Program-made: the position numbers and the translations under genes | The notes under the pieces: generated by a model | Databases searched by the model: none | What the model was told of the DNA's origin: nothing | What the model saw: the letters and a program-made list of their open reading frames with translations, nothing else | In this document: positions 10,047 through 16,887 of the stretch, one piece after another | How the letters are laid out: each line of letters starts with the position of its first letter | Numbering within the stretch: the stretch's first letter is position 1 | Assembly: GCA_000431795.1 (NCBI GenBank) | Contig: FR887368.1 | Span: 90,291-154,290 of the forward strand | Reading direction: 5' to 3' | From: Clostridium sp. CAG:302 | Lineage (GTDB): Bacteria; Bacillota_I; Bacilli_A; RF39; UBA660 | Length of the DNA stretch: 64,000 bases

Positions 10047-10883
10047 TTATTTTAGATAATCTTTTCCATCAATATCTATTGGTTTTTCTTCATCTAGACC
10101 TGGAAGTTTTAGATTATCTATTTTAATTTCTTTATATTCTTCTTTTGGAGGTACTACCTCTTTTTTTATTTCTGGAATATTATTTTTATAACTAGTAAAT
10201 GTTTTATTAGTTATAAATAATTTAGTTTTATCTACTTTACTTGGATCATATGAATTAACTATCCAAAATTCATATAATAACTTTAATATACTATCTGTCA
10301 TAACACTATCTTCAATTGAAGATAATTTATCTTTTTCTATTTTAATACTATTTTCTACTACAAATATTTTTTCTAAGATACTATCTTGTTTTTCAATAAT
10401 AATATCTTGTGAATATAAAGTATTATAAGTTTTAGGATATTTATTTTTATCTATTTTACCTTTTAATCTATCTCTTTTAATTACTAATTCACTATAATTA
10501 CTTTGTTTTTCTAGTAGTAGATATAATATATCTTGTACTTCTTTATCTTGATTTTTAATATCTTCATATAATACATTTCTATATTTACCAAAAGTATCTT
10601 CATTAAACTTAGATAAAAGAGTATCTTCAAGTAGTATATTATCTACTTCATATTCATCTTTAATTCTATTTAATTCTTCTAGCTTTTCTTTATCTAGCTT
10701 AACACTTTCTAATACTTTAAAATATCTTTCTTTAGCAGTTAAATATTTTAATATATTATTATATCTTTCTTGATATTCAGGTAATTCATCTACTAAATTA
10801 TTTTCTTTTAAATATTTTATTGTTTTTTCTACTCTTACTTTTTCTTCTTCAATAGTCGCAGTAATATAATCAAATTTATCCAT
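10047..10883 (-). CDS. coiled-coil cytoplasmic protein, last gene of the F1-like ATPase operon
   Basis: 278 aa, Lys/Glu-rich with heptad-like regions and no TM. The start overlaps the gamma-like gene by 8 nt, suggesting translational coupling. Confidence 0.6.
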   Translation of the reverse strand: MDKFDYITATIEEEKVRVEKTIKYLKENNLVDELPEYQERYNNILKYLTAKERYFKVLESVKLDKEKLEELNRIKDEYEVDNILLEDTLLSKFNEDTFGKYRNVLYEDIKNQDKEVQDILYLLLEKQSNYSELVIKRDRLKGKIDKNKYPKTYNTLYSQDIIIEKQDSILEKIFVVENSIKIEKDKLSSIEDSVMTDSILKLLYEFWIVNSYDPSKVDKTKLFITNKTFTSYKNNIPEIKKEVVPPKEEYKEIKIDNLKLPGLDEEKPIDIDGKDYLK

Positions 10884-11661
10884 TGTCAGCCTCCATATAA
10901 GATAATTTCTTATAATTATCTACTGTTTTATTAATTAGAATAGTTTTCTTTTCTTTTCTTAATTCATTACTTTGCTCTTCTTCTATTTGTTCTATTTTAT
11001 CTATTGCTTCTCTGGTTATTTGGTTTCTTATTGTGTTTTCAGCAGCTCTACTGATACATTCACACATTCTAAGTTGATACATTATATAGAAAGTAAGCAG
11101 GCTATAAATCATACTAGTTATATCTGTCTCTATAACAAAGTCTTTATTACTATAATATTCCCCTTCAAATTTTAAAGGAAATAGATTTAATTTTTTGAAT
11201 TCAAAAGATGTACTTGAGTTATAGTGGTTATAATATAAATTAATCTCACTATATGCTGCATTATGTATAGATTCATCTATAGTCTTCTCTATTCTACCAA
11301 GTTCATTATTAAAGTTATCTTTCTCTATTTTTAATAATGTTTTATCATCACTATATACTATTTTTTTACCTATAATTATTTTATAAACATCTTTATCTTG
11401 TCTTATTTGATGGGCTACCTGAGAATTAAAATTACCACAGAATCCATAATCATTAGCTATATATATATTAAGTTTAGGATTATCTGGATTTGGAGTAATT
11501 ATTTTTTTATCTAGAACTAAATTTCTATTATAGAGAATACTTCTTATTATATTAGTTATTTCATCACCAACATTTTGATAATGACTGGCTTCTCTTTTAG
11601 AAGCCTCAATTCTAAGTAAGGAGTGGAAGTTCATTACTTTAACTACGTTTTTTATTCTCAT
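10876..11661 (-). CDS. F1 gamma-like subunit
   Basis: The size and the N- and C-terminal helices (MRIKNVVKVMNFHSLLRIEASKREA...; ...CECISRAAENTIRNQITREAIDKIEQ) resemble the gamma coiled coil (canonical SRM.AM..AT.NA). The ATG at 11661 follows AAGGGTGG; the track start is a GTG. Confidence 0.55.
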   Translation of the reverse strand: MRIKNVVKVMNFHSLLRIEASKREASHYQNVGDEITNIIRSILYNRNLVLDKKIITPNPDNPKLNIYIANDYGFCGNFNSQVAHQIRQDKDVYKIIIGKKIVYSDDKTLLKIEKDNFNNELGRIEKTIDESIHNAAYSEINLYYNHYNSSTSFEFKKLNLFPLKFEGEYYSNKDFVIETDITSMIYSLLTFYIMYQLRMCECISRAAENTIRNQITREAIDKIEQIEEEQSNELRKEKKTILINKTVDNYKKLSYMEADNG

Positions 11662-12166
11662 CCTTACCACCCTTTCTTACATATTTATTTCTAATTACTA
11701 CATTCTTAATATTTTTAAGTAATGTATATGATAAATATAGTAATAAGAATATCATTAAGAATACTAATAGTAATAGCATCCATACAGAGTAATATTCATT
11801 TATAATATAATCATGAATTAAATATACTAATTTAATTCCTCCTAGTGATATTAAATCTAGTAAAAGATTTATTATTACTTTTTTATTTTTTATTAAAAGA
11901 CCACTGATAAGAGTTAATGATAAAGATATTAATGCTATATATAGATTTAAATCTATAAATGAAGCCATTATGTATAGTAAGAAGATATAACTAACAATAC
12001 TACATGATAAACTAATTATCTCAGTATTTTTCATACCTTGTAGTATTCCGTATATATTTACTTTTGATTCTTCTGGATTGAATTTTTTTATTAATATTTT
12101 TAATATTGCATATAAGGATATTAATACTATTAATCCAACACTAGCAAAATATAATACATTCTCCAT
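11639..12166 (-). CDS. polytopic membrane protein of the F1-like ATPase operon (not recognisable as subunit a)
   Basis: 175 aa with about 4-5 hydrophobic helices. No arginine occurs before the C-terminal basic tail. It lies between the epsilon-like and gamma-like genes. Confidence 0.6.
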   Translation of the reverse strand: MENVLYFASVGLIVLISLYAILKILIKKFNPEESKVNIYGILQGMKNTEIISLSCSIVSYIFLLYIMASFIDLNLYIALISLSLTLISGLLIKNKKVIINLLLDLISLGGIKLVYLIHDYIINEYYSVWMLLLLVFLMIFLLLYLSYTLLKNIKNVVIRNKYVRKGGKDENKKRS

Positions 12167-12167
12167 A

Positions 12168-12416
12168 CTATCCCTCTTTTATCATTAGATTAAAGACATT
12201 ATCACTATTCATATAAAAGGCTTTGATATTTTTAAATGATTCATTTACTACATCATTCTTTATATCAACTGATCCTTCTATTTCTCCTATTATGGGTAAA
12301 TAGTCTTTCATAATTAAAAGATTATAGTCTTTACTTATTATTCTTATTATTTTAATGTTATCATATACTCTCATACCATTTCTAATATCAAATACTTTTA
12401 CTTTTATTCCGTCCAT
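12168..12416 (-). CDS. F1 epsilon-like subunit (beta-sandwich only)
   Basis: 82 aa directly after the beta-like gene with a 13-nt overlap. [18 protein letters not shown] resembles the GE.GILPGH.P segment of epsilon. No C-terminal helical hairpin. Confidence 0.5.
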
Positions 12417-13765
12417 GTTATTTTACCTATATATCTAAATCTACTTTCATCAACATCATCATACTTACCTTCAAGAATATTCTCTACATCGTTAAGTACA
12501 TCATTTATATCAACGAATTCTCCTTTAATATTAGTAAATGGTTCTGCTACAAACATTGGCTGGGAGAAATAGTTTCTTAATTTTCTTGATCTATGGAATA
12601 TCTTTTTATCTTCTTCAGATAATTCTTCAATACCAAGTACAGCAATTATTTCCTCTAGTTCTTCATATCTAGTTAAATAAGCAAGAACTCTTTCAACTAA
12701 TTTAAAATGTCTTTCTCCTATCTTTTCTATATCTACTAATTTAGAAGTAGATTTAAATACGTTAATTGCGGGATATAATCCTAATTCAGATATCTTTCTA
12801 TCAAGTACTATTTGTCCATCCATATAACTCATCGTAGTTTGTACTGCATCATCGGTTAAATCATCCGCTGGTATATAAATAGCTTGAAATGAAGTAATAG
12901 AACCATTATTATTAGAATTAATTCTCTCTTCAATACTACTTATTTCACTAGCCATATTAGATGGATAACCATTTTCTATTAATAACTCTTTTAAGTCAGT
13001 AGCTATTTCTGCTTTAGCCTGAATAAATCTATATATATTATCTATGAAGATTAATACATCCTCTTTTTTCTCATCTCTTAAGTACTCGGCCATTCTAAGT
13101 CCAGTGCTTACACTCTTACTTCTTGATATTGGATTATCACCCATTTGTCCATATACCATGGCCATCTTATCAAGTAAGTTAGAATTTTTCATATCTTCGT
13201 ATAATTCTTTACCTTCACGGCTTCTTTCTCCTGCTCCAACAAATACTGCTCTTGCATTAGAACTAGCATATATATTATGAATTAACTCTTTAATAAGTAC
13301 TGTCTTACCAACTCCTGCACCTCCAAGTAATCCCATTTTAAATCCTTTTTGCAGTGGAGCAAAGAAGTCAATTACTTTAATACCAGTCCATAATGGTTCA
13401 GTTTCAACTTTTACTTCTTTTAAAGATACAGCACTATTATTCGCAGATACTTTTCTTTCACTTTCAAATGGTAAACCATCAATAGGATTACCATATGAAT
13501 CAAATATTCTTCCTAATATTTTATCAGAATATTCTACTTCTAGCTCGTCAGCTTTCTTTAAAACTATACTACCCTTTTGTAGTCCTCTAGTAGAATATAA
13601 ACTTACACAAGTCGCAGATATATTATTTACTTCAACTACTTCAAATAAATATTTTTCTTCAGTGTCTCCTTCTACTTTAAGAATATCCCCTATCTTTATA
13701 TTGGTACTTGATAAGATTATCTCTATAGATATATCACTAATTTTTATTATCTTACCTACTTGCAT
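12404..13765 (-). CDS. F1 beta-like catalytic subunit
   Basis: [14 protein letters not shown] (Walker A), [71 protein letters not shown] (DELSEED-like). The ATG at 13765 follows GAAGGTGAAG. Confidence 0.9.
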
Positions 13766-15840: not shown

Positions 15841-15841
15841 A

Positions 15842-16087
15842 TTATCCCACTAATGGATTAAAGAATAATAATAAGAAACAAAATGCAAATAAGAATAATA
15901 AGAATATTGAAAATATTATTAATATTGTCATTATTGAATGTACTACATCATTTTTAGTTTCTGGGTTTCTTCCTACGGCTTCAGCTACTCTTCCTCCTAG
16001 TAGGCCTACTCCTAGTCCTAATCCTAAAAATGCAAGTCCAACCATTACCCCTATTCCAATTGCGGTTGCAGATAAAATACTTTCCAT
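15842..16087 (-). CDS. ATP synthase subunit c-like hairpin protein lacking the helix-2 carboxylate
   Basis: Gly-rich helix 1 ([22 protein letters not shown]) and loop [15 protein letters not shown] (canonical R.QPE). Helix 2, [29 protein letters not shown], contains no Asp or Glu. Strong RBS AAGGAGG. Confidence 0.75.
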
Positions 16088-16097
16088 AATTTCCTCC

Positions 16098-16832
16098 TTA
16101 TAATTTATCTATTTCTTTATCTATATATTTACCACTAACATCTATGTTTGTTTGGTAGCATAATTTATTTATATCTTTTAATTTTACTGCATAATATAAT
16201 TTATTATCTTTGATATATAAACTCATTATATCAGGCAAGTTTTCTCTTATTCTAGTTATATATTTATAACTATTATCATTAAATTCTGTACCAGTAAGTT
16301 TTTCATTGGTAATAGCATCTATGACCACACTACTAGTATCTTCTATTTTTATATAATCAGTAAATAGTGAATCAGCTATATCTTTGTATGTAACATTAGT
16401 CATTTCTAAAAGATTATCATTATTTACTATTTTTTTATCTTTTAGATTATAATTTAAAATCAAAATCTCTTCATAGTTAGATAAATCTCCATATAGAATA
16501 TAACTTATTTTTATTGACAAAATATTTTTATATATTGTTTTAGTTATATCGGTATCGATAATTTTATTGTTATTTATAATTTTATGCTGTTTATTAACAA
16601 AATCATCTGTAACTTTATTATCAATATTTTCTAAATAAACAACATTACCTTTGGTTTTAACATAACTATCTATTTTATAATTGATTATATTATCTTCTAG
16701 ATAAGGATGTTTATGTTTATAGGCATAGATCCAATAAGTACTTATTCCTATAATAATACTAAATACTATAGTAAAAACTAGAAAAGTTCTTCTATAATCA
16801 TACTCTTTTTTAACCACTTTTTTCTTTTTCAT
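16098..16832 (-). CDS. single-pass membrane protein with extracytoplasmic domain, first gene of the F1-like ATPase operon
   Basis: Basic N-terminus and [24 protein letters not shown], then about 200 aa of soluble domain. Its stop lies 10 nt before the c-like gene. Confidence 0.55.
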
Positions 16833-16858
16833 AAGATTCCTACTTTCCTACTATATAA

Positions 16859-16887
16859 AGTATACCATTTTGAAGATTTTTAGTCAA
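16859..16887 (-). promoter_or_regulatory. sigma-A promoter of the F1-like ATPase operon
   Basis: TTGACT - 17 nt - TATACT with TG at the extended -10 position, downstream of the 16906..16939 terminator. Confidence 0.65.

Follow-up and report, generated by a model that had tools for sequence, protein, structure and literature searches.

To our knowledge, rotary ATPases are ion-coupled, the sole known exceptions being the F1-like motors of mycoplasmas, which dropped the whole Fo, and every characterised F-, V- or A-type rotor ring uses a helix carboxylate. The mycoplasma motors are repurposed F1-like ATPases (PMC3369863, PMC11864180, PMC12994834). Type 3, called 'F1-like X0' (MSC_0618/0619), works with MIB-MIP and is encoded by seven genes, specifying a protein with 12 transmembrane (TM) helices, a 19-35 kDa cytosolic protein, gamma, epsilon, an 87-kDa membrane protein, alpha and beta (PMC3369863, PMC12994834). 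The Type 2 gliding F1-like ATPase is a mechanical motor and does not serve energy conversion (PMC8406192, PMC11864180). The N-ATPase (atpDCQRBEFAG) keeps subunit a, an ion-binding c ring and AtpQ/AtpR (PMC2881411, PMC5376962). In Listeria monocytogenes, the genes lmo0088-lmo0093, called an 'ATP synthase-like operon', are listed as c, delta, alpha, gamma, beta and epsilon, with no a or b. They are flanked by the hypotheticals lmo0085-0087 and lmo0094 and coexist with a canonical atp operon, and, beyond a link to replication inside host cells, no function has been characterised for them (PMC13082608, PMC5736727, PMC3091722). Here, we describe a nine-gene F1-like ATPase operon in Clostridium sp. 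CAG:302 (contig FR887368.1, positions 90,291-154,290 of the forward strand; this stretch of 64,000 nucleotides (nt) is called the window below), together with its relatives. A literature search found no description of this ATPase family.

The operon lies at positions 10047-16832 of the window and its nine products are called P1 to P9, all encoded on the minus strand. We read it, with a probability of roughly 55%, as a divergent, ATP-hydrolysing rotary ATPase derived from the F-type, which would have kept the mechanical architecture, lost the ion path and passed its work to surface proteins. Profile searches, proposed in a preliminary description of this operon made from the window alone, succeeded for four of the products, which matched PF00006, PF00231 or PF00137. 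The other five (P1, P3, P6, P7 and P9) have no significant match in Pfam or NCBIfam. Relatives were searched for in one genome per species, and the taxon labels of metagenome-assembled genomes (MAGs) are those written in the records.

The c-like protein P2 (15842..16087, 81 residues) is a subunit-c homologue (PF00137, 5e-8) in which the GxGxGxG motif of helix 1 and the RNPE loop are kept and helix 2 is rich in Phe. Its profile matches the c subunits of the Protein Data Bank (PDB), with Ser61 aligned to the ion-binding Glu/Asp. The alignment was inspected for a carboxylate anywhere in helix 2 and the window protein has none, as the preliminary description had said; the membrane Asp/Glu by which a c subunit of canonical F1Fo is defined is thus lacking. 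None of 74 relatives in a first set of loci has an Asp or Glu in this helix, and it is absent from 48 of 49 c-like proteins in a second set, i.e., from 122 of 123 in total. The helix-2 Glu is present in all 16 canonical c proteins that came as by-catch and served as controls. The sole c-like protein with an acidic residue in helix 2 (L108, 2526-2771) reads MIVDTVF where its relatives have MIVTTVF; reversion, polymorphism or an error of sequencing might each account for this Asp. The c-like gene is the most constrained of the operon, with a ratio of nonsynonymous to synonymous substitution rates (dN/dS) of 0.00-0.04 and a mean column identity of 76%. Such strong conservation in a protein that has lost its carboxylate indicates that it is constrained for something other than ion binding.

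The other half of the ion path, a subunit a with its conserved membrane Arg as in canonical F1Fo, was not recognised either. Pfam and NCBIfam searches on every member, a PDB profile, an AlphaFold2 (AF2) model compared by Foldseek, and hhalign against E. coli subunit a and against 15 canonical a sequences were all negative or non-significant, which agrees with the preliminary description. The same comparison works where it should: queries with E. coli a, b, delta and epsilon easily recover the corresponding proteins of the canonical control operons L138-L160, which belong to assemblies other than those of the family loci, as judged by eye from contig names; subunit a finds a homologue in 14 of these 23 loci. 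P7 (11639..12166) is a 175-residue membrane protein and a candidate stator or adapter near the c-ring. Its AF2 model (predicted local distance difference test, pLDDT, 78.6) has five TM helices and one short helix, with a long helical hairpin at the end. This layout of a TM helix, a short helix and two hairpins, the last one long, recalls subunit a, a likeness that we do not count as evidence; subunit a chains are found only among the non-significant Foldseek matches of P7. The protein occurs in 78 of the first 80 loci and is the least conserved of the core (dN/dS 0.10-0.21, mean column identity 33%), with G40, Y120 and F140 as its only near-invariant residues. There is no conserved charged membrane residue and no conserved Arg in the P7 family. 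The window protein, correctly described before as lacking a membrane Arg, has R159, R164 and R174 only, at or after the end of the last helix.

The catalytic motifs of the head are intact. P4 (13752..15098) is a 448-residue alpha-like subunit (PF00006, 1e-69) with the Walker A motif GDKKTGKT and the Arg finger SVSRLGG, and P5 (12404..13774) is a 456-residue beta-like catalytic subunit (PF00006, 7e-65) with a further motif stretch of 15 residues, a Walker B motif and EELSEED. The motifs from which catalytic competence had been claimed (37 residues and EELSEED) are all in the translations, and Walker A and B, the catalytic Glu and the alpha Arg finger are retained in 75-78 of 78 relatives, in support of that claim. 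The view that this is not the ordinary ATP synthase was equally sound, since identity to the E. coli subunits is 33% for alpha and 41% for beta, and both score about half of canonical Firmicute subunits on the NCBIfam equivalogs. The best scores of P4 are 420 bits (cut-off 554) and 372.5 bits (TIGR00962, cut-off 484.45), and P5 reaches 459.2 bits on TIGR01039 (cut-off 462.85). Canonical Clostridia and Bacilli controls score 663-775 bits for alpha (704-775 on TIGR00962) and 809 bits for beta. Both window proteins thus stay below the cut-offs of canonical F1Fo. In a library clustered at 50% identity, P5 has four family representatives at 56-60% identity; the nearest non-family representatives are at ~35-49%, or ~35-45% for the near-full-length ones.

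P4 has ~60 C-terminal residues fewer than canonical alpha. Its N-terminal segment is retained: the alignment to alpha models begins at residue 9, so the part that binds delta in canonical enzymes is still there. Selection on alpha and beta is strong (dN/dS 0.03-0.08). Much longer alpha-like proteins of 845-1090 residues are encoded in five relatives (L062:4684-7221, L063, L076:3936-7208, L108 and L127), with the ATP-binding domain at residues ~150-370 followed by a C-terminal extension of 400-650 residues without a Pfam match. Several of the nearest non-family beta-like representatives (P0315, P0316, P0325 and P0337) are at or below the atpD cut-off (385-460 bits), and one comes from the 'Mollicutes bacterium PWAP' MAG, where it is named only 'AAA family ATPase'; more divergent F1-like clades may be present in metagenomes. 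PRK13343 and PRK06876 were tried as models of a 'second ATPase' subfamily and set aside, as canonical alpha scores still higher on PRK13343.

The 264-residue P8 (10876..11670) is the gamma-like central shaft (PF00231, 1.8e-21; 45.8 bits on TIGR01146, cut-off 194). P6 (12168..12416), an 82-residue protein in the position of epsilon, follows beta in 79 of 80 loci (dN/dS 0.05-0.12). It has no match in Pfam, NCBIfam or the PDB profiles. Its sole similarity is a weak, end-to-end colinear hhalign alignment to epsilon residues 3-83 (E = 0.04, 80 columns). By position, size and this alignment, P6 is probably the N-terminal beta-sandwich of epsilon without the C-terminal helices. Of the two subunits named in the preliminary description, gamma is recognised by its Pfam profile, although far below the equivalog cut-off, and epsilon is a tentative assignment from these three indications.

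The 252-residue P3 (15082..15840) had been regarded as b-like only, in an operon without a recognisable delta/OSCP, and here the comparison of predicted structures changes the picture. In the AF2 model (pLDDT 77), a long helix at residues 2-68, forming the TM segment and a stalk, is followed by a disordered linker and, at residues 100-244, by a seven-helix bundle with a small beta domain, resembling delta/OSCP. The top 29 Foldseek matches in the PDB are all delta/OSCP or mycobacterial b-delta chains (best match E = 0.016, probability 0.97). The invariant C-terminal motif GIKIxYKxKxYDFS is aligned to the conserved C-terminus of delta, and the hhalign E-values are 0.03 with E. coli delta and 5.7e-4 with a set of ten canonical deltas. 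Pfam OSCP matches weakly in 2 of 24 members of the P3 family; PDB sequence profiles of the whole protein and of its C-terminal domain returned spurious matches only (DMC1, casein kinase). From the predicted fold and the C-terminal motif, P3 appears, with good probability, to join a helix anchored in the membrane to a domain of the delta/OSCP kind and so to amount to a short b-delta fusion. Such a domain on a membrane-anchored protein would give the complex a stator stalk.

The operon is one of at least ~135 distinct loci, with a locus G+C content of 22-60% (26% for the window region), which share a nearly constant core of seven genes: c, b-delta, alpha, beta, the epsilon-sized protein, the multi-TM protein and gamma. 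Their open reading frames (ORFs) are intact in ~135 species-level genomes. The commonest order is AccL-c-(b-delta)-alpha-gamma-beta-epsilon-P7-AccS, in which the canonical alpha-gamma-beta is kept. In a second clade, AccL and AccS are both upstream and gamma is shifted to a place after the TM protein. In 23 of the first 80 loci, which form the window's clade, gamma is shifted in the same way, AccL and AccS are absent, and P1 is upstream and P9 downstream. For this clade, the shifted gamma is a derived state. The non-canonical gene order described from the window is therefore real there and does not hold for the family, most members of which keep alpha-gamma-beta-epsilon; a comparison of the loci found the seven-gene core widely shared and the form with P1 upstream and P9 downstream in the window's clade. 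In the window, dN/dS is below 0.5 for all nine genes, which are under purifying selection, strongest on c.

The hosts are mostly uncultured gut 'Bacilli/Tenericutes', probably the RF39 group to judge from contig names, and Clostridia. Other carriers are MAGs labelled Lachnospiraceae, Roseburia, Oscillospiraceae and Peptococcia. The system, first described from a relative of Mollicutes, is not peculiar to such a host and is spread across Bacillota. The complete nine-gene form is also found on a 60% G+C contig of the isolate assembly of Bifidobacterium colobi LC6 (L094 / L182, NZ_JAFEJU010000010.1), which, unless this contig is a contaminant, would extend the family beyond Bacillota. Cultured Chakrabartyella piscis BP5G, known from a complete genome (L231, NZ_CP092441.1), has been reached by a match to the c motif only. 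In a 1.46-Mb complete, RF39-like MAG (L058, CP091726.1), all nine operon genes are split into short ORFs, probably by indel errors and not as real pseudogenes.

The accessory proteins vary more than the core. AccL (~450-770 residues, with an FN3-like region, E = 2e-5) and AccS (~240 residues) are conserved single-pass membrane proteins, and their large C-terminal regions are probably extracytoplasmic. In the window's clade their place is taken by P1 (16098..16832), a 244-residue single-pass membrane protein with a basic N-terminus, one TM helix (predicted on the close homologue L001) and a C-terminal domain of ~200 residues, probably outside the cell. Its homologues occur only in the 21 closest loci (dN/dS 0.23-0.48), and a weak similarity to the internalin B cap/leucine-rich repeat (LRR) region (E = 2.6e-4) is maybe inflated by composition. 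P1 was also considered as a diverged AccS or AccL, a possibility rejected as hhalign matched the TM segment only. P9 (10047..10883), a charged soluble protein of 278 residues, probably a coiled coil, has homologues in 34 loci of the window's clade and part of its sister clade, 271-735 residues long where complete (dN/dS 0.19-0.33), and no family or PDB match. A P9 hidden Markov model gave no match to the long alpha C-terminal extensions, which discards a relation between them. P1 and P9 are clade-specific and fast-evolving; the proposal that these two proteins are the output modules of the motor is not borne out, as P1 is confined to the window's clade and P9 to that clade and part of the sister clade. 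In the Lachnospiraceae- and Mobilitalea-labelled MAGs L085-L089, P7 is absent and two enlarged AccS-like proteins (~405 and 450-490 residues) come after the epsilon-sized gene.

By NCBIfam family cut-offs, the operon is not a member of canonical F1Fo, of the N-ATPases or of the mycoplasma Types 2 and 3, whose clusters the preliminary description had portrayed correctly (PMC3369863, PMC11864180, PMC12994834). With Type 3, it shares what may be a second alpha/beta/gamma/epsilon-like set with Walker motifs kept, the lack of a recognisable ion-translocating Fo, co-encoded membrane proteins of unknown fold, a low-G+C Gram-positive lineage and the idea that ATP is turned into work at the cell surface. 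However, c, b and delta are all missing from Type 3, as is the N-terminal helix by which alpha binds delta, whereas the window operon has a c-ring protein, a probable delta-like stalk and unrelated accessory proteins. A peripheral stalk would thus be kept here, unlike in the mycoplasma systems, and no likeness of the accessory proteins to the X0 proteins was detected. P4 and P5 remain under the Type 3 cut-offs (alpha 313.4 vs. 520 bits, beta 414.7 vs. 570 bits), no NCBIfam MSC_06xx accessory model matched, and the operon holds no 12-TM protein and no large protein with two TM helices. Nothing annotated as MIB or MIP was seen among the neighbours scanned, for which no MIB/MIP-specific search was run. 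The Type 2 ATPase of Mycoplasma mobile (MMOB1660/1670) likewise has an F1-derived alpha/beta hexamer and a gamma-like shaft, but forms cytoplasmic dimer chains without c ring or delta, and its beta carries an N-terminal extension of ~30 kDa which is missing from the 456-residue window beta; the scores are 373.1 vs. 600 and 371.6 vs. 850 bits.

The likeness to canonical F1Fo (atpIBEFHAGDC) consists of homology in alpha, beta, gamma and c, a probable delta-like domain, a protein of epsilon size behind beta and, in most relatives, the order c, b/delta, alpha, gamma, beta, epsilon. Fusion of b to delta has a precedent in mycobacteria, whose chains are among the Foldseek matches of P3. The differences are the missing helix-2 carboxylate, the lack of a recognisable subunit a and of its essential Arg, a b probably reduced to one short helix fused to delta, a putative epsilon without C-terminal helices, an alpha C-terminus that is shortened here and extended by 400-650 residues in some relatives, and the extra single-pass membrane proteins of the family operons. 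As with the N-ATPase, the genes may be an additional F-type operon that has spread laterally, their order is non-canonical and delta is not encoded as a separate protein; the order in the window is nevertheless not atpDCQRBEFAG, and the alt_F1F0 scores for alpha, beta, gamma and c (341.9 vs. 750.5, 403 vs. 752, 23 vs. 282 and 15.9 vs. 131 bits) are far below the cut-offs. The FliI clade models give 168 bits for the alpha-like and 233 bits for the beta-like protein (cut-offs 587-619), and a broader FliI/YscN subfamily model 162 and 216 bits (cut-off 379.5). SctN and FliI are homo-hexamers of a single ATPase, whereas the window has distinct alpha-like and beta-like paralogues. The annotated order of the Listeria operon matches the commonest gene order of the family, as compared by description alone, but its delta and epsilon were found by routine annotation, unlike those described here. 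It may be a relative of the family. No Listeria locus is among the matches listed by two pattern scans, the second of which listed mainly canonical c genes of Patescibacteria.

In the proposed mechanism, alpha3beta3 would be the catalytic head, gamma, the epsilon-sized protein and the c-ring would form the rotor, and the membrane-anchored b-delta fusion P3 would be the stator stalk, with P7 probably beside the ring. ATP hydrolysis would turn gamma, epsilon and the c-ring against the stator with no H+ or Na+ being moved. The torque, or a conformational cycle, would be passed on to co-encoded single-pass proteins with presumed ectodomains, P1 in the window and mostly AccL and AccS elsewhere. The adjacent array of TasA-like secreted proteins, described below, is maybe also a client. 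Such a function would resemble that of the mycoplasma F1-like ATPases which power gliding or MIB-MIP, and the 'envelope process' that the preliminary description saw as possibly powered by the motor could be of this kind.

Several observations weigh against this scheme. The delta and epsilon assignments are statistically weak at the sequence level, and rotation and its coupling to the single-pass proteins are proposed from the genes. The accessory proteins differ among clades and the L085-L089 subgroup has no P7, so that the output is maybe not uniform. The Asp of L108 lies only one residue off the canonical carboxylate position. Finally, if the genome had no other F- or V-type ATPase, the cell would be without a rotary ion pump, which would favour a residual ion-coupled role for this operon.

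Such a role would make the complex an unconventional ion-translocating F-type ATPase or synthase, maybe the only one of the cell, with Ser, Thr and His residues of the c-like protein standing in for the carboxylate and P7 as a diverged subunit a. This is quite improbable given that the carboxylate is missing in 122 of 123 family members and present in 16 of 16 controls, even though the full F1Fo-like architecture is retained, probably with the stalk, and the canonical succession c-(b-delta)-alpha-gamma-beta-epsilon is found in the majority of relatives. The helix layout of P7 and the subunit a chains among its non-significant Foldseek matches also speak for a pump, but P7 is the least conserved core protein and has no conserved Arg or other charge. 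Alpha and beta are far outside the canonical equivalogs. One relative, L108, has its Asp beside the canonical position, and no second rotary ATPase was seen in the 64-kb window; on the other hand, the family occurs in MAGs labelled Roseburia and Lachnospiraceae, in the Bifidobacterium isolate and in Chakrabartyella piscis. Roseburia, Lachnospiraceae and Bifidobacterium normally carry a canonical ATP synthase.

The complex could instead be a membrane-anchored ATPase with a non-rotary output, its head energising the export or assembly of the secreted neighbours in the manner of FliI/FliJ or SctN, with the c-ring and P7 as an anchor or conduit. The ATPases of type III export share ancestry with F1 (PMC3665681), and FliI/SctN models do pick up the two ATPases of the window, albeit at 160-230 bits as against 370-460 for F1. 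Machines built of a rotor and a stator are typically marked by a hetero-hexamer whose alpha is non-catalytic, together with an epsilon-sized protein, a c-ring and a delta-like stalk, which makes this export function unlikely. Single-pass membrane proteins are co-encoded, and TasA-like signal arrays lie directly downstream in 36 loci; these arrays are nonetheless missing from the large canonical-order clade, and the TasA-like genes of the window have a promoter-like site of their own. A decaying, functionless remnant of a duplicated atp operon might be suspected from the lost carboxylate, the unrecognisable subunit a and the truncated epsilon and alpha. It is highly improbable, as the ORFs are intact in ~135 species-level genomes, the catalytic motifs are retained, and dN/dS is well below 1 for the nine genes and near zero for c, so that the selection analysis contradicts it.

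The rotary ATPase with a lost ion path, which we prefer, has some wider consequences. The family keeps a rotor ring and, probably, a stator stalk, yet is without both halves of the ion path, stably across lineages of Bacillota. Among its carriers are groups that abound in the human gut and at least one isolate in culture whose genome is complete (Chakrabartyella piscis BP5G). Nature thereby provides a case in which the abilities of an ion-free c-ring can be examined; the family also suggests a stepwise route from F1Fo to a mechanical motor and hints that ATP powers some unexplored process on the surface of Gram-positive gut bacteria. The beta protein is right at the NCBIfam cut-off, so routine annotation can label these genes as ATP synthase subunits; with such labels, metabolic reconstructions from MAGs may wrongly credit the organism with a proton-pumping ATPase. 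More tentatively, and as an idea that could well prove wrong, the family might be a new class of rotary ATPase, widespread in Gram-positive gut bacteria, in which rotation of a hydrophobic c-ring powers single-pass surface proteins without any ion translocation. If true, this would be an ATP-powered counterpart of the ion-driven MotAB, ExbBD and GldLM motors and would stand, in evolution, midway from true F1Fo to the F1-like X0 motors of mycoplasmas, with proteins bearing FN3- or LRR-like ectodomains and TasA-like fibre subunits as its candidate clients.

The nine ORFs are arranged head to tail on the minus strand, and an ORF check found all of them at the coordinates first assigned, in keeping with the tight packing described. 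Five of the junctions are overlaps (17, 23, 13, 32 and 8 nt) and three are gaps (10, 1 and 1 nt). A sigma-70-like promoter candidate, TTGACT-17-TATACT with an extended -10 TG, is present upstream of the first gene, where it had been reported, at 16859..16887 of the minus strand, directly after a hairpin and T-run. It is a consensus match only. Promoter-like matches are not enriched in this AT-rich stretch compared with shuffles (46 found, 61.6 expected), so this site has no statistical weight by itself. The next promoter-like site (10036-10008) is past the last operon gene, and the nine genes therefore look like one unit.

This second site belongs to a trio of TasA-like paralogues (9352-9981, 8478-9245 and 7661-8335; 7661..9981 in all, minus strand), directly downstream of the operon. 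They have TasA/camelysin-type (SipW-type) N-terminal signals, with matches to PF12389 and TIGR04088 that are sub-threshold. Of the first 80 loci, 36 have members of the TasA-like family on the operon strand, nearly always right behind the operon, as arrays of one to six paralogues of ~185-440 residues (mostly 200-260) in the window's clade and its sister clade, and the large canonical-order clade was found to have none. The 64-kb window has such genes at 7661-9981 and 3921-5049 and nowhere else. These neighbours may be functionally linked to the operon. In the relative L036, which also has TasA-like genes upstream, a type I signal peptidase (4791-5321; TIGR02227, 160 bits) is encoded immediately 5' of the c-like gene.

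Past the TasA-like genes of the window, positions 5108-7175 encode CotE of the outer spore coat (PF10628, 8e-50), a Sir2-family deacetylase and a YetF/DUF421 protein. With CotE in this neighbourhood, the host probably forms spores. On the other side, just upstream of the operon, a 396-residue protein (16942-18132) has an N-terminal signal or anchor and no family match. A homologue has C-terminal TM helices, and the gene is kept only in the closest relatives (14 ORF matches in 11 loci). Further away, the region 34989-49774 looks like part of a conjugative element, with a VirD4/TraG-type coupling protein (34989-37175), a thioester-domain/SpaA-type adhesin (40712-42271) and a type IA topoisomerase (47708-49774). 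A P-type (E1-E2) ATPase is encoded at 43992-46313.

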